Source: Candidatus Omnitrophota bacterium (GTDB lineage Bacteria > Omnitrophota > Gorgyraeia > Zapsychrales > JANLHA01). Taken from it: a stretch of DNA of 64,000 nt. The notes beneath the pieces were generated by a model. The model was not told where the DNA came from. It did not search any database and saw nothing but the letters and a program-made list of their open reading frames with translations. The DNA is taken from positions 282,890-346,889 of the forward strand of contig JACKFJ010000001.1 of assembly GCA_020632535.1 (NCBI GenBank). Reading direction: 5' to 3'. Of the stretch, positions 2 through 52,000 are shown piece by piece. The position numbers were made by a program, and so were the translations under genes. Position 1 is the first letter of the stretch, and each line of letters begins with the position of its first letter.

Positions 2-610
2 GACGAAGGATTAGCCATACTCAGTGATGTAAAAAAGAAATTTGGTGTTCCGATTCTCACGGATGTGCATTGTCACTGTGACATGAAAGCGGTCGCAAAA
101 GTCGTAGATATTATTCAGATTCCAGCTTTTCTCTGCCGTCAGACTGACTTGATTGTTGCGGCCGCGAAAACTGGCAAGATCATCAATGTGAAAAAAGGGC
201 AATTTCTCGCGCCGTGGGATATGAAATCTGTGGTTAAGAAGTTGGAAAAAGCAGGTAATCGTAAAATTCTTTTGGCAGAGCGCGGTGTCAGTTTTGGGTA
301 CAATAATTTAGTCACTGATTTTAGGTCGCTTGCGATGATGCGCGATTTAGGGTATCCCGTTGTTTTTGATGCTTCGCACAGTGTTCAGCAGCCGGGTGGT
401 TTAGGGGAAACATCGGGTGGGAAAAGTGAATTTATCCCTCTGCTTGCACGTTGTGCGATTGCGGCGGGATGCGACGCGATTTTTACCGAAACTCATTTTG
501 ATCCGTCTAAAGCGCTTTCCGATGGACCGAACATGATTCCATTAAGTAAATTAGGGCCGCTATTAAAAGATTTACAAGCTATCGATAAAGTTTTGAAGAA
601 AACCAAATAA
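2..610 (+). CDS. kdsA: 2-dehydro-3-deoxyphosphooctonate aldolase (KDO-8-P synthase), 5' end cut by the window edge
   Basis: The frame is open from nt 2 ([23 protein letters not shown]...). [14 protein letters not shown] and FDASHSVQ motifs are typical of KdsA. It is followed by kdsD and kdsC. Confidence 0.9.
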
Positions 611-6748: not shown

Positions 6749-8332
6749 ATGAAGATTTTGATTAGCGATAAACTTGCCAGCGAAGGTATAGAAATTCTCA
6801 AGTCTGTAAAAGAATTTCAAGTTGACTTAAAAACAGGAATGTCGCCTGCCGAATTAAAAGCGATTATTAAAGATTATGACGCTTTAATCGTGCGCAGCGA
6901 AACAAAAGTTACTGCAGAGATTCTCGACGCTGCAGATAAACTCAAAGTCATTGGTCGCGCTGGGGTGGGCCTTGATAATGTTGATTTGGTCGCGGCAACA
7001 AAAAAGGGCGTTGTTGCCATGAATACACCCGCTGGGAATACCACGTCAACCGCAGAACATACGATGAGTTTGATTTTAGCGCTGTCACGTAATATTGCGC
7101 AAGCGGCTGCGTCGATGAAAAGTGGGCGTTGGGATCGTTCAAAATTCAGCGGTGTTGAAATTTATGGAAAAACTTTAGGGATTGTCGGACTTGGCCGTAT
7201 TGGCGCGACAGTCGCGAGTTTTGCAAAAGCCTTCGGTATGAAAGTTTTCGCGTTCGACCCGTTTTTATCAAAAGACGTGGCCGCTAAGATGGGTATCGAA
7301 ATTGTTGAGTTTGAAAAACTCATTAAAGATTCCGACTACATTACGGTTCATATTCCAAAGACGGAAGAGACGACAGATATTATCTCCGACAAGGAATTTG
7401 CTATGATGAAGAAAAATGCTCGCGTTCTAAATTGTGCGCGCGGCGGAATTATCAATGAAGCGGCGTTGGTTAGAGCTCTACAAGAGAAGCGTATTGCGGG
7501 TTGTGCTCTGGATGTTTTTGATGTTGAACCTTTGCCGGCAGATTCGCCACTTTTGAAATTTGACAATTGTATTATGACGCCTCATTTGGGTGCTTCCACA
7601 AGCGAAGCGCAAATCAATGTCGCCATTGAAATTGCTGAAACTGTAAAGAATGCGCTTTTGGGTCGTGGAATCATGAACGCGGCTAATTTCCCATCGTTAA
7701 GTGGAGAAGCTTATACGGTTCTTGCTCCGTATATTGATTTGTCGGAGCGCATCGGTAAATTTGCTGGTCAGTTGATTAATGGCCGTTTAAGCGGCGTAAA
7801 AATTACATATAGTGGCGTGGTTACCGAGTATAAATCCGCTCCGTTAACATTGTCTTTTGTTAAAGGCCTTTTGCTCCCGATTCTCGGTGAGACGGTCAAT
7901 TCAATTAACGCGATCGATGTGGCGCGTGAACGTGGCATTAATGTTCAAGAAGTCCAATCGAACGTTAAAGCTGAATTTGTTAATTTGGTCAACGTTGAAA
8001 TTACGACAGATAAAGAGACATTTACAGTTTGGGGAACGCTGTCTGCGAATCTTCAACCGCGTATCGTGCGTGTTAATAATGTCTACGTCGAAACGATGCC
8101 AAAGGGGCACATGCTGTTTATTAATAATAATGATAAGCCGGGTATCGTCGGTGGGGTGGGGACTGTTCTTGCCGAGAATAAAATTAATATTGCCGGTATT
8201 ACTTTAGGTCGTGAAGCGGCGGGCAAGCTCGCTATTAGTGTCGTAAATGTTGACAGTGAAGTACCACAGCCTGTGATTGAAAAAATCAAAGCTATGCCGA
8301 ATATTTTATTCGTTAAGCTGATCAAAGTTTAA
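6749..8332 (+). CDS. serA: D-3-phosphoglycerate dehydrogenase (long form with C-terminal ACT-type regulatory domain)
   Basis: NAD motif GIVGLGRIGATVA and 2-hydroxyacid dehydrogenase core. 527 aa with a C-terminal regulatory extension. Confidence 0.9.
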   Translation: MKILISDKLASEGIEILKSVKEFQVDLKTGMSPAELKAIIKDYDALIVRSETKVTAEILDAADKLKVIGRAGVGLDNVDLVAATKKGVVAMNTPAGNTTSTAEHTMSLILALSRNIAQAAASMKSGRWDRSKFSGVEIYGKTLGIVGLGRIGATVASFAKAFGMKVFAFDPFLSKDVAAKMGIEIVEFEKLIKDSDYITVHIPKTEETTDIISDKEFAMMKKNARVLNCARGGIINEAALVRALQEKRIAGCALDVFDVEPLPADSPLLKFDNCIMTPHLGASTSEAQINVAIEIAETVKNALLGRGIMNAANFPSLSGEAYTVLAPYIDLSERIGKFAGQLINGRLSGVKITYSGVVTEYKSAPLTLSFVKGLLLPILGETVNSINAIDVARERGINVQEVQSNVKAEFVNLVNVEITTDKETFTVWGTLSANLQPRIVRVNNVYVETMPKGHMLFINNNDKPGIVGGVGTVLAENKINIAGITLGREAAGKLAISVVNVDSEVPQPVIEKIKAMPNILFVKLIKV

Positions 8333-32666: not shown

Positions 32667-32675
32667 TGTTATAAT
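32667..32675 (+). promoter_or_regulatory. extended -10 box TGTTATAAT, 7 nt before ATG 32683 (a leaderless transcript is implied)
   Basis: TGnTATAAT at 32667-75. No SD in the 7 nt (AAAGCCC) before the ATG. The same box and spacing occur at 47742. Confidence 0.5.
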
Positions 32676-32682
32676 AAAGCCC

Positions 32683-33741
32683 ATGAAAAAAATTGCCATT
32701 CTCGGAAATTCATTAAGCGCTATCAAAGTCGTTGAACATCTTAAGGCGCACGATCAAGACATTGAAGCCGTCATCATTTCACAGGAAAATACGTTTCCCT
32801 ATTATCGAAATCGAGTTTCACAATTACCTGTTAAGAAAATCAATTCGAATCAGCTTTTTTATCGAGCAAACGCAGAATATCTAGATGAAAAGATCACATT
32901 TATTTTTGAAAAAAAAGTCACGCGTGTCAATTTTAAACGTCGACGATTAACTTTGGATGATAAAGAGCAAATTGATTACGATGTCCTTTTGTTGGCGGAT
33001 CTTTCGCAGCAGCCGTTTTTTGGCGTGAAGGGAGCGAATAAATCCGGTCTTTATAATTTAAAGAAATTGGCGGATACCACAACAGTATTAAAGCTTATAC
33101 CACTTATTGAAACGATTGTGATTCAATCTGATCATTTGGCAGGACTTAAAATGGCGATTGCTTTTAGCGAAATTCAAAAGGAAGTCATTCTTGTCACGTT
33201 GGGGAAGAATATTTTAAATGGTTTATTGAGTGAAACCGACGCGCTTGCCTTGGAAGTGCTTTTACAAGAAAGTGGTGTGCGAGTAATGACGGATAGTCAA
33301 ATTGTTGAAATCTTGGGTGATACTGACGCAAAAGCAGTTCGTTTGCAAAATGGAAAAGTCTTTGGTTGTCAGGCGGTTTTGACCGACGCGGATCTTCCTG
33401 ATTTGCGATTGTTTAAAGAAACCGAACTGCAATCTTCGCAACGGGTTTCGGTAAATGAAAGTTATCAAACGAATTTTGATAATGTCTTTGCCTTGGATGC
33501 AGTTTGTGCTAACATGAAATTCACTGATTGGGATGTTTCTGAAAATTTTTCGTCTTTAGCTGAGGAACAGGGAAAAATCATTGCCGCGCGAATCGTAAAT
33601 AAAGAGTACAGCCCTGTAGCGCAGACATTGGTTTGGGATTTAGAATTAAAAGGTGAGCTTGTCAAAATATCCGTTGAAAATGATGCTTTTGGAAACCCCA
33701 TTTTGAAGGTTGTTCGAACGGAAACTGCGGTTAGTGCTTGA
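32683..33741 (+). CDS. pyridine nucleotide-disulfide oxidoreductase-like protein with degenerate dinucleotide-binding motifs
   Basis: Length and beta-alpha-beta spacing resemble NADH oxidase or rubredoxin reductase-type flavoproteins. However, GxGxxG reads GNSLSA, the second Rossmann motif reads IQSDHLAGL, and the GD motif reads LDAV. Confidence 0.5.
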   Translation: MKKIAILGNSLSAIKVVEHLKAHDQDIEAVIISQENTFPYYRNRVSQLPVKKINSNQLFYRANAEYLDEKITFIFEKKVTRVNFKRRRLTLDDKEQIDYDVLLLADLSQQPFFGVKGANKSGLYNLKKLADTTTVLKLIPLIETIVIQSDHLAGLKMAIAFSEIQKEVILVTLGKNILNGLLSETDALALEVLLQESGVRVMTDSQIVEILGDTDAKAVRLQNGKVFGCQAVLTDADLPDLRLFKETELQSSQRVSVNESYQTNFDNVFALDAVCANMKFTDWDVSENFSSLAEEQGKIIAARIVNKEYSPVAQTLVWDLELKGELVKISVENDAFGNPILKVVRTETAVSA

Positions 33742-44167: not shown

Positions 44168-44282
44168 TCCATTGCGAGCCACAGAAAACGTAAATTGTTT
44201 TTAGGAAGAGCTTTGATGTGGCGCGGCAATCTTTTAGAGATTGCTTCGTCGCCATGAATAATTGAACGGCTCATCGCAATGG
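44168..44282 (+). repeat. intergenic nested-hairpin repeat, copy c (long form)
   Basis: TCCATTGCGAGCC (44168-80) ... GGCGCGGCAATCT-TTTAG-AGATTGCTTCGTCGCC (44220-44253) ... GGCTCATCGCAATGG (44268-82). Confidence 0.75.
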
Positions 44283-44294
44283 TTGGAGACATCA

Positions 44295-44867
44295 ATGCTG
44301 CTTATTATCGACAATTACGATTCTTTTACATACAACTTGGTTCAGTATTTTGGCGAGTTGAAAGCAAGCATGAAGATTTTTCGTAATGATGCATTGACGA
44401 TTGAAAAGATTCGTCGTTTAAAACCGTCTCGGATTGTGATTTCACCGGGACCCGGTCGTCCGGAGGACGCAGGGATTTCTGTAAATGTCATTAAGAGTTT
44501 TAGTGGTAAAGTCCCGATTTTGGGTGTGTGTCTGGGTCATCAGGCTATTGGTTACGCGTTTGGTGGTAAAATTATTGGGGCTAAGCATTTGATGCACGGT
44601 AAAACATCTTTGATTGAACATGCTGGAACGGATATTTTTAAGAATTTGGAAGTTCCGTTTGAAGCTACCCGTTATCATTCACTTGTCATTGACCCGAAGT
44701 CTTTGCCGGATTGTCTTGAAGTGACAGCTTGGACGAAGGACAAGGATAAGGAAATTATGGGTATTCGTCACAAAAAAATCCCACTATGGGGTGTCCAATT
44801 TCATCCTGAATCTATTCTCACCAAAGCCGGAATGGGAATTTTAAAGAATTTCCTGAAAATTTCATAA
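44295..44867 (+). CDS. trpG: anthranilate synthase component II / aminodeoxychorismate synthase glutamine amidotransferase
   Basis: [16 protein letters not shown]-terminus and triad region GVCLGHQ ... QFHPES. Start at ATG 44295 behind GGAG; the track TTG at 44262 is inside the repeat. Confidence 0.9.
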
Positions 44868-44868
44868 T

Positions 44869-45885
44869 ATGGATCGATATATTCATATATTGCAGGATCG
44901 TCAAGATTTAAGCGAAAGCGAAATTGCGACGGTAATGCACCTGATCATGTCCGGCAAAGCGCCGAAGGAAGCTTTGGGGAGATTTTTATTGGCTTTGAAT
45001 CTCAAAGGTCCTACCGTCGATGAAATTACGGGTGCTGCCAAAATGTTGCGCCAGTTTTCACTTGAAGTTAAAACGAAACATAAGGTTGTCCTCGATACGT
45101 GTGGTACGGGTGGAGACAAGAAAAATACTTTTAATATTTCCACGATCACAGCTTTTGTTGTTGCGGGTACGGGTGTTGTTTTAGCCAAGCATGGGAATCG
45201 TTCCGTTTCAAGTCGTTGTGGGAGTGCTGATGTTTTGGAAGCCCTTGGTGTAAATCTCGATGTTAAACAGGAACATTTGGGTGAATGTTTGGACAAAGTT
45301 GGGATTGCGTTTCTTTTCGCACAAAAACTTCATCCAGCGATGAAAAACGTTGCGCCGGTTCGAAAGGATCTTGGCGTCGAAACAATCTTTAATATTCTAG
45401 GACCACTCTTGAACCCGGCAAAAGCGACACATCAAATGATGGGTGTTTATAATCGTGATTATGTTGAACCATTGGCGAGGGTTTTGAAGAATTTGGGTTT
45501 GCGGCGAGCTTTGGTTGTGTATGGCAGCGATGGACTCGATGAAGTCACGACCACAGCAAAGACCTTTGTTAGTGAGTATAATGGCAAAGAGATTTTAAGT
45601 TATGATATTGATCCTAAAGAATTAGGATTGAGTTTGGCGCAAGAATCTGATCTTAAGGGTGGTGATTTGCCCGAGAATGCCGCAATTGCCCTTGATATTT
45701 TGATGGGAAAGTCTGGCCCAAGAAGAGATATTGTTGTTTTAAATGCGGCGTGTGCTTTGTATTGCGCGGAAAAAGTTTCAGCAATTTCTGACGGTATTGT
45801 TCTTGCAAAGCAATCGATTGACAGTGGTAAGGCTATGAAGAAGTTGGAAGAATTGATCGCCTTCACGCAAGGATTAAAGACGTGA
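44869..45885 (+). CDS. trpD: anthranilate phosphoribosyltransferase
   Basis: DTCGTGGD, KHGNRSVSS and GPLLNP motifs. Confidence 0.95.
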   Translation: MDRYIHILQDRQDLSESEIATVMHLIMSGKAPKEALGRFLLALNLKGPTVDEITGAAKMLRQFSLEVKTKHKVVLDTCGTGGDKKNTFNISTITAFVVAGTGVVLAKHGNRSVSSRCGSADVLEALGVNLDVKQEHLGECLDKVGIAFLFAQKLHPAMKNVAPVRKDLGVETIFNILGPLLNPAKATHQMMGVYNRDYVEPLARVLKNLGLRRALVVYGSDGLDEVTTTAKTFVSEYNGKEILSYDIDPKELGLSLAQESDLKGGDLPENAAIALDILMGKSGPRRDIVVLNAACALYCAEKVSAISDGIVLAKQSIDSGKAMKKLEELIAFTQGLKT

Positions 45886-46670
45886 AAAGGGATTTCTTAA
45901 AAGAGATCGTCGCTTATAAAAGAGAGCTTCTAGAGCAAAAAAGCGGGTATTATGGTGCCCTTAAGAAAAATGTTAAGACGACACCGCATAGTCGGTATGG
46001 CCTTTTTAAGAAAGCGATCAGTAATCCTGGTCGTGTGAATTTGATCGCAGAGATTAAGAAAGCTTCGCCTTCAGTTGGAATTATCCGAGAGCCCTTTGAT
46101 TTGAATGGATTGGCACGAACATATAAGGAAAACGGCGCGGCGGCGATTTCTGTTTTAACGGAGGATAAGTATTTCTTGGGTAAACCAACGTATGTCCGTC
46201 GGGTCTGTGAAGAAGTTGCGATGCCTGTTTTAACAAAGGATTTTATTATTGATGAACATCAGATTTATGAAACATTTTGTCAAGGATCAAGCGCTGTTCT
46301 TTTGATTGTCGCGATTTTAGACGACGCTTTGTTGAAAGATTTGATGCAAATTGCCGCGGATTTAGATATGGATTCTCTTGTTGAAGTTCATGATGAAGCT
46401 GAGTTGCAGCGAGCGCTGAAAGTTGGGGCAGATATTATCGGAATTAATCATCGCAATTTGGCGACATTAGCAATTGATTTGTCCGTTAGCGAAAAACTCG
46501 TTTCGCAAATTCCGCGCGGAAAAGTAATTGTTGCGGAGAGTGGAATTAAAACGAACGAAGAAATTAAGCAATTGCAATCTTTGGGAGTCCATGCTGTTTT
46601 GATTGGGGAAAGTTTTTTGCGATCCGCTGATGTTGGAGCGAAAGTTAGAGAAATCATGGGAGTAAAATAG
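45882..46670 (+). CDS. trpC: indole-3-glycerol phosphate synthase
   Basis: IAEIKKASPS, LTKDFIID and GINHRNL motifs. Confidence 0.95.
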   Translation: MKRDFLKEIVAYKRELLEQKSGYYGALKKNVKTTPHSRYGLFKKAISNPGRVNLIAEIKKASPSVGIIREPFDLNGLARTYKENGAAAISVLTEDKYFLGKPTYVRRVCEEVAMPVLTKDFIIDEHQIYETFCQGSSAVLLIVAILDDALLKDLMQIAADLDMDSLVEVHDEAELQRALKVGADIIGINHRNLATLAIDLSVSEKLVSQIPRGKVIVAESGIKTNEEIKQLQSLGVHAVLIGESFLRSADVGAKVREIMGVK

Positions 46671-46743
46671 TTTAGCAATTCCTGCAGGATTACTAAATTA
46701 TTTTTAAATATGGAAGCAGGAAGTCGAAAGGATTTAAAAATAA

Positions 46744-47376
46744 ATGTTAAAAGCAAAAATTTGTGGAATGACAGATTCGAAAGATGCCCTTTTGGCCGCG
46801 TCATTGGGCGCGTGGGCTGTTGGGTTCATTTTTTATAAAAAAAGTAAGCGATTTGTCGGGCCGTATAAGGCTAAGAAAATCATTTCTGATTTGCCGCCAT
46901 TTGTCACACCAGTTGGTGTCTTTGTCGATCAAAAACAGGGAGCCGTTAAGGAGATCGCGGAGTTTTGTGGATTAAGGGTTTTACAATTCCATGGTAATGA
47001 AACGCCCGATTTTTGTAAGCGGTTTGATACGTACAAAATTATTAAAGCCTTTCGTGTTGGCGAAGCATTTAACATTGATCTTTTGCGTCCTTACAAGTCG
47101 ATTGTCAGTGCTTTTCTTTTTGATCGTCATGAAGAGGGCGTGCAAGGTGGAACAGGAAAAACATTTGATTGGAAGTTGATTAAGGAAGCAAAGAATTTTG
47201 GTGTACCGATTATTCTTTCTGGTGGAATTCATTCCAATAATGTTCGCACGGCGTTTGAGGAAATTGGTCCGTACGCGGTGGATTTATCTAGCGGTGTTGA
47301 GGATGCGCCGGGCAAGAAGAGTGAGCGTTCTATGACCGAGTTTTTTAAACAACTTGTTCTTCCAGTATCTATTTAG
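46744..47376 (+). CDS. trpF: phosphoribosylanthranilate isomerase
   Basis: KICGMT N-terminus, LQFHGNE and LSGG...VDLSSGVE motifs. Confidence 0.9.
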   Translation: MLKAKICGMTDSKDALLAASLGAWAVGFIFYKKSKRFVGPYKAKKIISDLPPFVTPVGVFVDQKQGAVKEIAEFCGLRVLQFHGNETPDFCKRFDTYKIIKAFRVGEAFNIDLLRPYKSIVSAFLFDRHEEGVQGGTGKTFDWKLIKEAKNFGVPIILSGGIHSNNVRTAFEEIGPYAVDLSSGVEDAPGKKSERSMTEFFKQLVLPVSI

Positions 47377-47414
47377 TCTTTCGTAAGTTATTGCTGGCCT
47401 TTGGTTTTGTGCTC

Positions 47415-47443
47415 TTGTGGAGTTCAAATGCATATGCTATCTT
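47415..47443 (+). promoter_or_regulatory. candidate promoter for the structured RNA
   Basis: TTGTGG (47415-20), 17-nt spacer, TATCTT (47438-43). The predicted start near 47450 coincides with the 5' edge of the closing helix. Weak match, so low confidence. Confidence 0.35.
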
Positions 47444-47449
47444 TGGATT

Positions 47450-47680
47450 AAGCCGATAAAGGCAAACCCGCCGAAAGACGGGGACGTCCCGTAAGGGACC
47501 GCGGCGTCTAATCGGACGACGTGGCAAAGCTACAGGCCTAAATTGTCTTCAAACCAGGAAGGCCCCCTAGCTGTGGGCAGTGTGTAGACACGGTGAAGGT
47601 GAAGGGACAATAAGGTGGCTGAGTTGCCGAAGAGAGGTACTGGCGGCATAGGTTGCTGCCGGCTTTATCGGCCCTCTTTT
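47450..47680 (+). ncRNA. structured RNA of unknown class (about 230 nt, plus a terminator)
   Basis: No plausible ORF in a 382-bp gap. 10-bp closing helix 47452-61/47663-72. Tandem GNRA hairpins at 47467-82 (GAAA) and 47486-99 (GUAA), with further hairpins at 47502-21, 47581-92, 47616-29 and 47642-60. A canonical terminator follows immediately. Boundaries are approximate. Confidence 0.6.
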
Positions 47681-47712
47681 CCCTTAAGTGATTAAGGGAT
47701 TTTTTATTTTTT
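47681..47712 (+). terminator. intrinsic terminator
   Basis: CCCTTAA-GTGA-TTAAGGG hairpin followed by ATTTTTTATTTTTT. Confidence 0.85.
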
Positions 47713-47741
47713 AAGGAAATTCGCTGCATATTTTTCTCTTA

Positions 47742-47750
47742 TGTTATAAT
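47742..47750 (+). promoter_or_regulatory. extended -10 box TGTTATAAT, 7 nt before ATG 47758 (a leaderless transcript is implied)
   Basis: TGnTATAAT at 47742-50. The 7 nt before the ATG are ACCCCCC, with no SD. Confidence 0.5.
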
Positions 47751-47757
47751 ACCCCCC

Positions 47758-48060
47758 ATGTCAGAAAAACTTTTACGTGTTTATAAGCCTTTTGATCTGA
47801 GTAAGGTTAAAGAGCATCTTTTGATTTACGGTGATTTGTCAGGGCAATGCAGTCATTGTCAGAATATGGACGTGAAACTGGAAATGGTTTCCTGCCCGAA
47901 TTGTCGAACAGATTTTCGTTATATCGCCTTCCGCAATGTTCAGCATCACATGCCTAAAATTGTGAATATTAATCTTAACCGCCAAGATTTGACGATTATT
48001 GACTATGATGATTTTAGTCGTACGTTGGGGGCTAAAAAAGCAGAGGATTTTTTTAAATGA
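47758..48060 (+). CDS. hypothetical zinc-ribbon protein (CxxC-x15-CxxC)
   Basis: 100 aa with CSHCQ...CPNC. The stop overlaps the next start (ATGA at 48057). No family recognised. Confidence 0.6.
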   Translation: MSEKLLRVYKPFDLSKVKEHLLIYGDLSGQCSHCQNMDVKLEMVSCPNCRTDFRYIAFRNVQHHMPKIVNINLNRQDLTIIDYDDFSRTLGAKKAEDFFK

Positions 48061-49193
48061 TTAATGATAAACGTTTGATTAAATTAACACAAAAGGTTCT
48101 CAGCTATAATTCTGAAAATCCGCCGGGGAATGAATTGGCTTTAGCAGATTTTATTGAAAAAGACATGCGTTCATTGGGGATTGACGTTAAAATTCATACT
48201 TTTGCAAAAAACCGGCCCAATATTATTGCGACGCTTAAAGGAAAAGGTCCTCATGCCGCTAAAGATTCCGTTCTTTTAACGCCGCATTTTGATACAGTCC
48301 CCATTGGCAGCGGTTGGAAATTTGACCCGCTGGGTGGACAGATTAAAGGTGGCAAAATTTATGGTCGCGGGGCGAGTGATGATAAGGGGAATTTAGCCTG
48401 TTGTATGGAAGTGATGAGGAGTTTGGTTGAAGACAAAGTGATTTTAAAACGTGATATCATTATGGCCGCGACTGTCGACGAGGAAACAGGCAGCAAGGCG
48501 GGCATTATTCCTTTGCTTGATAAGAAGATTTTGAAACCGGGTTATGGTTTGATTGTCGATTCGGACGAGTTTTATACAATCATTTGTCAAAAAGGTTTGT
48601 TGCACACGCGCGTTCAGATTTTTGGAAAAAAAGCGCATGGCGCGTACAATTGGCGCGGTGTCAATGCGATTGAACAGGCGAGTAAAGTAATACAGCTTTT
48701 GAAAGCTCATCAATTTAAATATAAGAAGCATGCCATTTTGCATCCACCAACGATGAATATTGGGACGATTCGTGGAGGCGATAAGGTCAATATGGTTGCC
48801 GATTTTTGTGAATTTTCGTTGGATACTCGCTTTTTACCGGGTATGAAATCAAGTGATGTTGTAGCAGAAATTAAATCGATTGTTCGAAAAGTCACGCCAA
48901 AATTTAAAATTATTATTGATGATTTACAGCAGCCGTATGAAATTGCGCCAAATCATCCTTTTGTCCGCACATACGTCGATACCGCTAAGAAAATGAAAAT
49001 TCACGCTGAAGTCAAGGGTAGTGAAGGCGCGACGGTTATTACGTTTTTCAAGAAGCATGGGATTCCTGCTTTCGCGACGGGGTATGGTGCTCGAGGGACG
49101 GCGCATACGACAGATGAATACGCTAAAGTGAATACCTTGATAAAAGGCGCTAAGTTAATGGAAAGATTTATTAAAGATTTTGATCGGACATAA
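48057..49193 (+). CDS. M20-family metallopeptidase (ArgE/DapE-like deacylase)
   Basis: LLTPHFDTVP, GRGASDDKG and ATVDEETGS metal-ligand motifs of M20A enzymes. Confidence 0.85.
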   Translation: MINDKRLIKLTQKVLSYNSENPPGNELALADFIEKDMRSLGIDVKIHTFAKNRPNIIATLKGKGPHAAKDSVLLTPHFDTVPIGSGWKFDPLGGQIKGGKIYGRGASDDKGNLACCMEVMRSLVEDKVILKRDIIMAATVDEETGSKAGIIPLLDKKILKPGYGLIVDSDEFYTIICQKGLLHTRVQIFGKKAHGAYNWRGVNAIEQASKVIQLLKAHQFKYKKHAILHPPTMNIGTIRGGDKVNMVADFCEFSLDTRFLPGMKSSDVVAEIKSIVRKVTPKFKIIIDDLQQPYEIAPNHPFVRTYVDTAKKMKIHAEVKGSEGATVITFFKKHGIPAFATGYGARGTAHTTDEYAKVNTLIKGAKLMERFIKDFDRT

Positions 49194-49194
49194 T

Positions 49195-49938
49195 ATGAAA
49201 ACGATTGTGTTTGGTTTTCTTGGGGTATTTGTATTGGCTACATCTGTACAAGCCGCGAATGATTTGTCGGATTTTATCGGTGAAAAAATCACATATTCGA
49301 TTAAGCAAATGGGTGTGAAAGCTGGTGAAGCAACGTTAAGTTATGAAGGTCCAGCTTTTAAGGAAACGAAAGATTACCTTCTTATTGTTTTCAAAGCTGA
49401 TGGATTTAATTTTATGGATACAGAAATGATTTACGCTGATCCGCAGACACTTTTACCACAAATTGTCGTCCGTGATCTTAATATTTTTGGCAAGAAAGAA
49501 CAGATCACCGAATATTACGATACGCAAAAAGGAACCGTGAGAATTGTTAAAACAGTTTCCGGTACAACGACAGAGGAGACGATTAATAAAAAAGGCATGA
49601 TTGACAATATTTATTGCTTTATTTATCGTTATCGTCGTGACGGCGAGTTTAAGGTTGGGGAGACAATCGCCATTTTTTTGCCGACAATGGATTTGAATAT
49701 TAAGGTGGAAAATAAGCGCAATTTATCGACAGCTGGGAAGAAGTATGACGCCATTTTTATGCAAAGTACGCCGTCGAAATACAAGTTGTGGTTTGACGCC
49801 AACGCTGGGAAAATTCCTTTGCGTATTGATGGCGCTGTCGGTGTTGGGAGTACGTCGATGACAATGACAAGCTATGAATCCAAACGCGCGTACGCTTTAA
49901 ATCACACAGGACTTGAATTCAATGTCAGTGCCCGATAA
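49195..49938 (+). CDS. secreted DUF3108-like protein
   Basis: Signal peptide [20 protein letters not shown] and a beta-rich sequence resembling my recollection of DUF3108. The start lies 2 nt after the M20 stop, and the 3' end overlaps the trpB start. Confidence 0.6.
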
Positions 49939-51100
49939 ATCAGGTCATTTTGGTGAGTTTGGTGGCAAGTATGTTCCCGAGACTTTGATGTCGGTTTTAG
50001 AGGAATTGGAAACAACTTTCACGAAAGCTCGCAAAGACAAAAAGTTTAAGGATGAATTTGCGTATTATTTGAAAGAGTATGCCGGTCGTCCAACAAATTT
50101 GTATCTCGCTAAGCGTCTTACCAGTCAATTCAAAAATCTCAAAATTTATTTAAAGCGCGAAGATTTGCTTCATACTGGCGCGCACAAAATTAATAATACG
50201 TTGGGTCAAATTATTTTAGCCAAGCGAATGGGTAAAAAGCGGATCATTGCCGAGACTGGTGCTGGTCAGCATGGCGTTGCGACCGCGACTGCGGCGGCGC
50301 TTTTTGGATTGCAGTGTGAGATTTACATGGGCGCGGAAGATATCAATCGTCAGTCGCTCAATGTTTTTCGTATGAAGCTTATGGGCGCTAAAGTTATTCC
50401 GGTTACAAGTGGCTCAAAAACACTTAAAGATGCGATGAATGAAGCTATCCGCGATTGGGTCACGAATGTTCGTAATACGTTTTATATCATCGGATCTGTT
50501 GCCGGTCCACATCCGTATCCTTTGATGGTTCGTGAATTTCAATCAGTGATTGGTCGCGAAGCTCGTCGACAATTTCGGGCTAAAGAAAAGCGGCTGCCAA
50601 GCTATCTGGTCGCGTGTGTTGGCGGGGGTAGTAATGCCATGGGTTTATTTCATGCTTTTTTTAATGACACACAAGTTAAAATTATTGGTGTTGAAGCCGC
50701 TGGTCACGGATTACAAAGTGGGGAACATTCTGCCGCGATATGTGCCGGACAAACCGGAGTTTTGCATGGTAGTAAAAGTCAATTATTACAGACATCCGAA
50801 GGTCAGGTCAAAATTGCACATTCGATTGCCGCTGGTTTGGATTATCCCGGTGTTGGGCCGGAACATTCGTACTATAAGAAAATTGGTCGCGCGGATTATG
50901 TTGGTGTCACGGATAAAGAAGCTATCATCGGATTGAAATTGCTATCTCAGACGGAAGGGATTATTCCCGCGCTTGAAACGAGTCATGCGATTGGATATTT
51001 GTCACGTCTTGATAGTAAAGCCAAGAAGAATTCGACAGTTATCGTCTGCCTTTCGGGACGAGGGGACAAAGATGTGAACACGATGAAGGAATTGATATAG
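49922..51100 (+). CDS. trpB: tryptophan synthase beta chain
   Basis: [24 protein letters not shown] (PLP lysine) and GGGSNAMG motifs. The start is ATG 49922 or TTG 49913; both overlap the upstream gene. Confidence 0.95.
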
Positions 51101-51108
51101 AAACTTTT

Positions 51109-51188
51109 TGTCCATTGCGAGAAGTCCTGCAGGGACGACGTGGCAATCTTAAATAGATTGCTTTGTCACTGCGTTGCTCGCAATGGCA
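51109..51188 (+). repeat. intergenic nested-hairpin repeat, copy d (most complete)
   Basis: TGTCCATTGCGAG (51109-21); hairpin GTCC-TGCAG-GGAC (51124-36); GACGTGGCAATCT (51137-49)-TAAAT-AGATTGCTTTGTC (51155-67); CTCGCAATGGCA (51177-88). Confidence 0.8.
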
Positions 51189-51199
51189 GGTATAGGATA

Positions 51200-52000
51200 A
51201 TGCAAAATAGAATTGACAAAAAATTCGCGGAATTAAAGAAGAAAGGCCAAAAAGCTTTTATTGCTTTTGTCACGGCCGGTGATCCTGATCTCGAAACGAC
51301 GGTTGATTTGGTTCGTGGTTTTGAGAAAGCGGGTGTTGATATCGTCGAGTTAGGTGTGCCTTTTTCGGATCCCTTAGCGGACGGGCCGATTATTCAAGCC
51401 GCTTCCCAGCGTGCATTATCAAATGGAACAACAATCCCTAAGATTTTTGCGGCTGTACGCGCAATCCGTCAGTTTTCAGAAATTCCTCTTGCCTTAATGA
51501 CGTATTACAATCCTGTTTTTCATTATGGTGAATCTAATTTTGTTAAAGATGCAAAAGCTGCCGGCGTTGATGGCATCATTGTTCCGGATTTGCCTCCGGA
51601 AGAAGCCAAAACTTTGATCGCAATGAGCCGCAAGTCTGATTTTGCGACCGTGTTTTTTTTGTCGCCAACAACGACAGATCGCCGAATTAAAAAGATCGTC
51701 AATGCTTCCACAGGTTTTATTTATTATGTTTCTCTAACGGGAGTAACGGGAACTCAGCAAGGTTTGCCCAAGGATATTATTGAGCGTATTAAGAAAGTCA
51801 AACGTGCCACAAACATGCCGATTTGTGTTGGCTTTGGTGTTTCCACCGCTCAAGACGTTCAATTGATTAGCCGTGTCGCGGACGGTGTTATTGTGGGGAG
51901 CGCAATTATCAATGAAATCCAAAAGCATAAGGATTCGGCGGCTTTAACTCCGTTGATTGTAAAATTTGTTCAACAGTTGTCCTCAAATCTGAAGGAATAG
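51200..52000 (+). CDS. trpA: tryptophan synthase alpha chain
   Basis: FVTAGDPD, ELGVPFSDPLADGP and YVSLTGVTG motifs. Start at ATG 51200 behind AGGA; the track start at 51140 reads through the repeat. Confidence 0.95.
   Translation: MQNRIDKKFAELKKKGQKAFIAFVTAGDPDLETTVDLVRGFEKAGVDIVELGVPFSDPLADGPIIQAASQRALSNGTTIPKIFAAVRAIRQFSEIPLALMTYYNPVFHYGESNFVKDAKAAGVDGIIVPDLPPEEAKTLIAMSRKSDFATVFFLSPTTTDRRIKKIVNASTGFIYYVSLTGVTGTQQGLPKDIIERIKKVKRATNMPICVGFGVSTAQDVQLISRVADGVIVGSAIINEIQKHKDSAALTPLIVKFVQQLSSNLKE

Follow-up and report, generated by a model that had tools for sequence, protein, structure and literature searches.

What is the RNA that separates trpF from the next open reading frame (ORF) in a tryptophan gene cluster of a Candidatus Omnitrophota bacterium, and does it regulate the genes behind it? 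The window analysed here is a stretch of 64,000 nucleotides of contig JACKFJ010000001.1 (positions 282,890 to 346,889), and the element in question is a folded, GC-rich RNA of ~260 nt at 47451-47712 (+) of that window. The initial annotation had described it as a structured plus-strand RNA that was unclassified and agreed with no riboswitch consensus. The structured RNA is borne out by a fold with z = -3.3 and by conservation in relatives. The lack of a class does not hold: judged from its sequence, the core of the RNA is an aptamer of the cyclic di-GMP-I (c-di-GMP-I, GEMM-I) class in an enlarged form, and several of the elements listed at the time are canonical GEMM-I parts.

The window was scanned with Rfam 15, in which the c-di-GMP-I family (RF01051) has a gathering score of 35 bits. 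The sole match at gathering level in the window was to RF01051, at 47451-47631 (+) with 40.6 bits (E = 1.7e-4 for the whole window and 9.9e-7 in a local scan); the alignment needs local inserts of 40 and 59 nt. The covariance-model search proposed in the initial annotation has therefore returned a confident match to a known family. Matches to HIV_FE, L10_leader and PyrR were discarded, with E of 1 or more and scores far below gathering. Homologues described below scored 40.1 (L006), 37.2 (L003), 35.1 (L007) and 42.5 bits (L008 and the identical L009), and L010, L120, L061 and L077b fell below gathering. The RNA matches the family consensus in order: AAAG-GC-AAA, a 6-bp GAAA-capped P2, GAC, GC-AAA-GC, the CCUAAA/UA(A/U)GG receptor and UGCCGAA. 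P2 reads as the family requires (GC-AAA-CCCGCC-GAAA-GACGGG-GAC ... GC, with one C.A mismatch), except that GAC and the closing GC are set apart by two hairpins. Parts that had been listed as separate features can be renamed accordingly: the first GNRA-capped hairpin is P2, CCUAAA...UAAGG is the tetraloop receptor, and GCCGAAG is J3/1. The receptor strands CCUAAA (47537-42) and UAAGG (47611-15) face each other and align to the consensus CUAA...uAuG, as a putative receptor for the GAAA loop; L006 and L008 have UAUGG, the form found in the 11-nt receptor motif.

The ligand pocket points to the same family. In the Vibrio cholerae Vc2 aptamer, c-di-GMP is recognised by G20 (Watson-Crick/Hoogsteen contact), C92 (Watson-Crick pair) and A47 (backbone contact); A47 stacks between the two bases of the ligand. 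The equivalents G47461 (G20), A47526 (A47) and C47627 (C92) are all canonical and are invariant in 8/8 copies. We infer from these positions that the RNA binds c-di-GMP. The GEMM-Ib type specific for cyclic GMP-AMP (cGAMP) has A at position 20; with G at this position, the RNA is not of the A20 cGAMP type. The J2/3 motif is GCAAAGC, unlike the GCGAAGC of the GGC variant (RF03167 consensus).

The RNA differs from the family in four respects: P2 is a four-way junction, P3 carries a branched insert of ~55 nt, an extra 3' hairpin (P4) is present, and a 10-bp closing helix takes up the canonical P1 5' strand. The features, with the flanking promoters and the terminator, are as follows.

47415-47443 (+), promoter of the RNA, read from the sequence: -35-like TTGTGG at 47415-20, a 17-nt spacer and the extended -10 element TGcTATCTT at 47435-43
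47452-47461 (+), 5' arm of the long helix, GCCGAUAAAG; it also holds the P1a 5' strand (C47453-G47455), J1/2 (47456-60) and G47461
47462-47525 (+), expanded P2 domain, from the Rfam alignment and from compensatory changes in P2, hp2 and hp3
G47462-C47525 and C47463-G47524 (+), base of P2, 2 bp, followed by AAA
47467-82 (+), P2 hairpin with a GAAA loop, followed by GAC
47486-99 (+), extra hairpin hp2 with a GUAA loop
47500-23 (+), extra hairpin hp3, from the fold and compensatory changes
47526-47527 (+), J2/3 adenosines, A47526 being the A47 equivalent
47528-47625 (+), P3 domain, from the Rfam alignment with a 59-nt insert, folds, and covariation in P3a and P3b
47528-38 with 47614-25 (+), P3a
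47543-47 with 47606-10 (+), P3b
47553-55/47598-600 (+), base of the branched P3 insert, which contains P3c (47562-78), P3d (47581-92) and the purine tract GGUGAAGGUGAAGG
47626-47637 (+), J3/1 and purine linker, GCCGAAGAGAGG; C47627 is the C92 equivalent
47640-47662 (+), extra hairpin P4, CUGGCGGC / GCUGCCGG; 95% of cells paired, one double-change pair
47663-47672 (+), 3' arm of the long helix, CUUUAUCGGC, invariant
47673-47680 (+), pyrimidine tail, CCUCUUUU, which could pair with 47630-37 of the purine linker
47680-47712 (+), intrinsic terminator: stem UCCCUUAA / UUAAGGGA (47680-99), loop GUGA, U-run to 47712
47742-47760 (+), promoter of the small ORF (context, outside the RNA): TGTTATAAT, 7 nt, ATG at 47758, no Shine-Dalgarno sequence

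Folding of the region gave a minimum free energy (MFE) of -102.8 kcal/mol, lower than 199 of 200 dinucleotide shuffles, and the MFE fold reproduces the helices listed, the 10-bp helix included. The GC content of the region is ~54% against a background of ~40%, in agreement with the GC-rich spacer noted at the outset. Both GNRA hairpins of the initial annotation are present (the C.A mismatch lies in 47467-82), as is the terminator, with its stem at 47680-99 and T-run to 47712. Its other hairpins fared unevenly: those at 47500-23, 47581-92 and 47640-62 are retained on covariation or conservation, but the one drawn at 47616-29 is not a hairpin and corresponds, in the Rfam alignment, to the P3 3' strand plus the J3/1 junction. 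The P2 insert (~38-49 nt from GAC to the closing GC) consists of two abutting hairpins that use every nucleotide in 11/11 sequences, and its position between GAC and the closing GC turns P2 into a four-way junction. The sub-helices of the P3 insert are supported chiefly by conservation. P4 is missing in L010 and is ~4 bp long in L120.

Covariation was judged on an alignment of eight sequences, in which 97.4% of cells are paired in the proposed structure. We counted 14 double-change pairs, where column shuffles gave 4.5 +/- 1.5 and slid controls 1-3. The compensatory changes, which the initial annotation had proposed to look for in relatives, are located in P2, hp2, hp3, P3a, P3b and one P4 pair; the long helix, in contrast, is invariant and uninformative in this respect. 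Indels among the homologues have lengths that are not multiples of three and occur only at hairpin tips, which argues against coding sequence; two minus-strand ORFs (47369-47527 and 47538-47729) were rejected as genes on this ground.

The copies in Candidatus Omnitrophota were collected by using the 100-aa ORF downstream of the RNA as a handle. This ORF has no Pfam match and was found only in metagenome-assembled genomes of Candidatus Omnitrophota. Seven further loci carry the RNA: L003, L006, L007, L008 (identical to L009), L010, L136 and L001 (an identical fragment). In the window the gene order is aroA, trpG, trpD, trpC, trpF, RNA, 100-aa ORF, M20 peptidase, DUF3108, trpB and trpA. The trp cluster (window 44262-52000) is split, with trpG-D-C-F on one side of the RNA, the 100-aa ORF and the M20 and DUF3108 genes, and trpB-trpA on the other. 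The RNA had been placed inside the trp operon. This is true of the window but not of L003, L007 and L136, where the gene before the RNA encodes a protein of ~1000 aa and not trpF, so the trp position appears incidental. No support was found for the proposed link to tryptophan-pathway metabolites.

Close relatives L002, L004, L005 and L011 have no RNA. In L004, trpF leads directly into the promoter of the small ORF. The RNA slot is occupied by a Phd/YoeB type II toxin-antitoxin cassette in L002 (3408-3947) and L011 (479-742), and by a Phd/PIN type II cassette in L005 (3274-3929). A remnant of the terminator, its 3' half, persists in L005, which suggests that the RNA was displaced. The more distant L012-L015 and L137 also have no RNA; in L012-L015 the ORF-M20 pair stands in a different context, with no trp genes in the flanks fetched.

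The RNA appears to be transcribed from a promoter of its own. The candidate promoter of the initial annotation is in the sequence as described (-10 box TATCTT, 47438-43), and the TG at 47435-36 makes it an extended -10 promoter. Its boxes are kept in L003, L006, L007, L008, L010 and L136 as CTTGT(T/G) ... TGnTAT(C/G)(G/T)T. In L120 the promoter is TTGAAA-17-TGTTATTCT, at an equal distance from the start of the helix. Transcription would start at ~47450-51, about the first base of the long helix, and likewise in L120.

The pairing 47452-61/47663-72 of the initial annotation, the long helix, is perfect Watson-Crick; among 300 shuffled sequences, 3 also gave a perfect long-range pairing of 10 bp or more. 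The helix is 100% invariant in 8/8 copies, even in L120, where every other helix has changed; such invariance fits a dual constraint, i.e., a conserved junction sequence plus its complement. In Vc2, P1a includes G14 and G94, and the ligand guanine paired to C92 adjoins G14. A canonical P1a of 3 bp is possible in the window RNA (C47453-G47632, C47454-G47629 and G47455-C47628), in the pattern annotated in RF03167; it is invariant, so that covariation is uninformative here too. The 10-bp helix would hide the P1a 5' strand, J1/2 and the G20 equivalent, and would compete with the ligand pocket. Because G47461 is unable to pair with C47663 and touch the ligand at once, the long helix and the pocket cannot fully coexist.

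A second pairing may join the linker to the tail. The initial annotation had offered two alternative partners for the 3' pyrimidine tract. Complementarity to the linker is kept in every Omnitrophota copy, with one in-register compensatory pair (A-U in the window, G-C in five others) and with the register shifted by one position in L008; a real helix 47630-37/47673-80 is suggested by this pattern. The other partner, AAGGGA (47602-07), which would invade the terminator, is not conserved (AUGGGA against ACCCUU in L007 and L003) and was rejected. The linker-tail helix was also considered as an antiterminator and rejected, as the 2-nt overlap exists in the window only and fails in L006, L007 and L136.

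Does the aptamer control termination? Each of seven copies was folded intact, with its 5' strand barred from pairing, and as the 3' part alone. The terminator hairpin is predicted to be identical in all three foldings in 7/7 copies. A coupled platform of the classical riboswitch kind was not found, as the terminator does not overlap the aptamer and, by thermodynamic folding, is predicted to form regardless of aptamer state. From the long helix to the terminator, five copies have 7-12 nt, L010 has 77 nt and L008 ~100 nt. The larger gaps of L010 (2774-2855) and L008 (2827-2925), which end at the conserved terminator, are filled by unrelated structured inserts, and the L010 insert contains a 10-bp hairpin, CCCCUUUAAA / UUUAAAGGGG. 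In L003 the terminator loop is split by a 195-nt element (terminator arms 3729-38 and 3934-43); this element has imperfect 21-nt terminal inverted repeats (3734-54 / 3911-31) and looks like a miniature transposable element.

The gene behind the RNA has a promoter of its own. TGTTATAAT-N7-ATG without a Shine-Dalgarno sequence precedes the small ORF in every locus, with or without the RNA, and neighbouring genes mostly have AGGA-type ribosome-binding sites. This arrangement suggests that the small-ORF mRNA is leaderless. A second gene of leaderless type occurs in the window at 32667-32685, with TGTTATAAT-AAAGCCC-ATG at 32667.

These predictions (a conserved promoter, an uncoupled terminator, variable spacing and a separate ORF promoter) speak for a discrete RNA of ~260 nt rather than an attenuator, and the stand-alone small RNA (sRNA), one of two options left by the initial annotation, is the one we prefer. 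Our reading is that of a free-standing c-di-GMP-binding RNA whose terminator is uncoupled from the sensor, to which we give a probability of roughly 0.5. Without ligand, the 10-bp helix with 47663-72 would lock up the P1a 5' strand, J1/2 and the G20 equivalent, and the pyrimidine tail would hold the 3' half of P1a. With ligand, the RNA would adopt the canonical junction and these 3' segments would be freed. If termination is independent of this toggle, the RNA is most likely free-standing and not an attenuator of the next gene. Its output might be that of a c-di-GMP buffer or sponge, a role proposed for the merRNA of Bdellovibrio, or of a ligand-gated RNA that acts on other molecules.

Several points weigh against this reading. 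Binding of c-di-GMP would need the 10-bp helix to open, at least at G47461-C47663, and with a canonical P1a of only 3 bp the pocket is possibly weak or no longer functional. As the long helix shows no variation, covariation is neutral towards it. The start site, 3' end and abundance of the RNA are all predictions from sequence. A same-strand ORF follows, and the layout of aptamer, terminator and gene resembles a classical riboswitch. The Omnitrophota copies were found through the small ORF, which biases the statement that the RNA is always upstream of it. In L006 the terminator and the -10 box are just 4 nt apart, and kinetic co-transcriptional coupling would be compatible with the thermodynamic folding result. 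No convincing GGDEF, EAL, HD-GYP or PilZ motif was detected by regular-expression search of the ORFs of the 64-kb window; GGDEF and PilZ domains have been reported in Omnitrophota.

The strongest competitor, to be taken seriously and in our view the less probable of the two, is a cis-acting c-di-GMP riboswitch of the classical type. RNA chains begun at the 47415-43 promoter, or arriving from the trp genes upstream, would stop at 47712 or read through into small ORF-M20-DUF3108-trpBA according to c-di-GMP, with the long helix and the linker-tail helix as the expression platform. In all seven Omnitrophota copies the RNA lies on the same strand directly upstream of the operon, and its 5' strand has two mutually exclusive partners, a typical switch trait. 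Five copies, among them L120 with its unrelated terminator sequence, have the terminator 7-12 nt behind the long helix, and the distant L016, L061 and L077b are ordinary terminator-type riboswitches. However, the terminator is predicted in every folding scenario, and the linker-tail helix reaches into the first two pairs of the terminator in the window but not in L006, L007 and L136. A platform of this kind would also be broken by the 77-100 nt of unrelated sequence in L010 and L008 and by the 195-nt insertion in L003. The small ORF has its own conserved promoter and is kept with it in close relatives without the RNA; since it has no Shine-Dalgarno sequence, read-through RNA would translate it poorly.

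The free-standing sensor has also to be set against two readings in which the pocket no longer matters or never existed. An exapted or decaying GEMM-I scaffold that has ceased to sense the ligand, and serves a structural or protein-binding role or as a terminator/insulator after trpGDCF, would agree with the burial of J1/2 and the G20 equivalent in the 10-bp helix, with the short P1a, with the search of the window's ORFs in which no GGDEF motif was seen, and with a dispensable RNA replaced by toxin-antitoxin cassettes in close relatives. We consider it improbable, as the ligand- and tertiary-contact nucleotides are strictly conserved although the helices have diverged, in L120 as well, which implies selection on the pocket. 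Furthermore, the 5' junction and the 3' arm of the helix are equally invariant, for which a dual constraint is a better fit than a plain stem, and 220 nt of conserved structure would be needless for a mere terminator. It is hardly credible that the RNA represents a new class whose Rfam match arose by chance from the GNRA loop and the receptor motifs. The score exceeds gathering by just 5.6 bits and requires two large inserts, and L010, L120, L061 and L077b stay under the threshold; but E is 1e-6 locally, five homologues independently score at or above gathering, and the junctions match too (AAAGGCAAA, GACN...GCAAAGC and UGCCGAA), beyond loop and receptor. The same expanded architecture was also found upstream of PilZ and receiver-domain genes, as described next.

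The wider occurrence of the two-hairpin P2 was examined by a metagenome scan with three GEMM-core anchors, the spacing of which was chosen to exclude ordinary aptamers; the insert-specific motif ACGGTGAAGGTGA was rejected as an anchor, being mutated in L010. Among the matches listed, 116 of 120 loci were due to chance and four were genuine (L120, L016, L061 and L077b); on viral contigs the anchor pattern gave chance matches within coding sequence only. The two-hairpin insert is present in each of the four; in sequence its hairpins are unrelated to those in the window, and L016 alone reaches RF01051 gathering. Partial RF03167 matches in L010, L120, L061 and L077 scored 25-36 bits against a gathering score of 59. 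The terminators of L016, L061 and L077b overlap the aptamer 3' strand, and the downstream genes encode a secreted protein and a PilZ protein (L016), a receiver-domain protein (L061) and secreted proteins (L077b). We concluded that these three are ordinary terminator-type riboswitches in typical c-di-GMP contexts. L077 carries tandem expanded GEMM-I aptamers (7136-7313 and 7411-7580) upstream of secreted-protein genes; in the first of these the order of hairpins in the P2 domain differs, with the GNRA-capped hairpin last. L120 (~150-345, minus strand) is the nearest relative outside the Omnitrophota context, with the 10-bp helix unchanged, a promoter of its own and a terminator of unrelated sequence; there the RNA precedes a glycoside hydrolase family 1 gene and not the small ORF. 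In the literature searched, coverage of which was incomplete, we found no earlier description of extra hairpins in GEMM-I.

The distant members allow a broader proposal, in which the two-hairpin P2 defines an unrecognised GEMM-I subclass that became a c-di-GMP-gated trans-acting small RNA in the Omnitrophota lineage of the window. Taken as a whole we regard this as unlikely. Such a subclass would be spread over unrelated bacteria and largely missed at the Rfam threshold. On ligand binding, the canonical junction would recruit both the GAAG linker and the 5' strand, and a pyrimidine-rich strand of ~18-28 nt (47663-47680, CUUUAUCGGCCCUCUUUU) would be released beside the terminator hairpin. The released strand might pair with purine-rich, Shine-Dalgarno-like mRNA sites or bind a protein.

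If the assignment is correct, the GEMM-I fold tolerates and repeatedly gains large peripheral domains, a natural experiment on how peripheral elements tune a second-messenger sensor. A covariance model with the inserts would recover members that now lie under the Rfam threshold. The RNA would also provide a natural c-di-GMP aptamer of ~220 nt with extra junctions, a handy target for cryo-electron microscopy, and, independently of merRNA, a second case in which a riboswitch aptamer is put to use as a self-contained RNA. The bacteria of this phylum are small and may depend on hosts or be predators, and very little has been learnt of their signalling. The split trp cluster should not be read as being under tryptophan-related RNA control.

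How does the RNA compare with known c-di-GMP-I systems? It shares with Vibrio cholerae Vc2 and RF01051 the core of a three-helix junction, the order of sequence motifs and the G20/A47/C92 equivalents. Unlike Vc2, it has hairpins after the GAC of P2, an insert in P3, P4 between J3/1 and the 3' strand, and the 10-bp helix; its terminator lies clear of the aptamer, and a separate promoter serves the downstream gene. The variants c-di-GMP-I-GGC (RF03167), c-di-GMP-I-UAU and GEMM-Ib cGAMP (clan CL00126) are built on the same scaffold, but these specificity variants alter the ligand-contact nucleotides, whereas the window RNA keeps the triad and alters the periphery. Tandem c-di-GMP-I riboswitches such as Bc3-5 of Bacillus thuringiensis (PMC4759541) are enlarged c-di-GMP leaders too; the window RNA has one core, and its extra hairpins are inserts in a single aptamer. 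The closest functional parallel may be the merRNA of Bdellovibrio bacteriovorus, a c-di-GMP-I-containing sRNA of 445 nt that appears to control no ORF, is expressed enormously in attack phase, was proposed to act as a sponge or store of c-di-GMP and was reported as restricted to Bdellovibrio (PMC3627812). The likeness, drawn by description, would lie in a c-di-GMP-I aptamer within a discrete non-coding RNA. By its sequence and predicted structure the RNA is thus a member of a known family, and what is unusual is its expanded architecture and genetic organisation.

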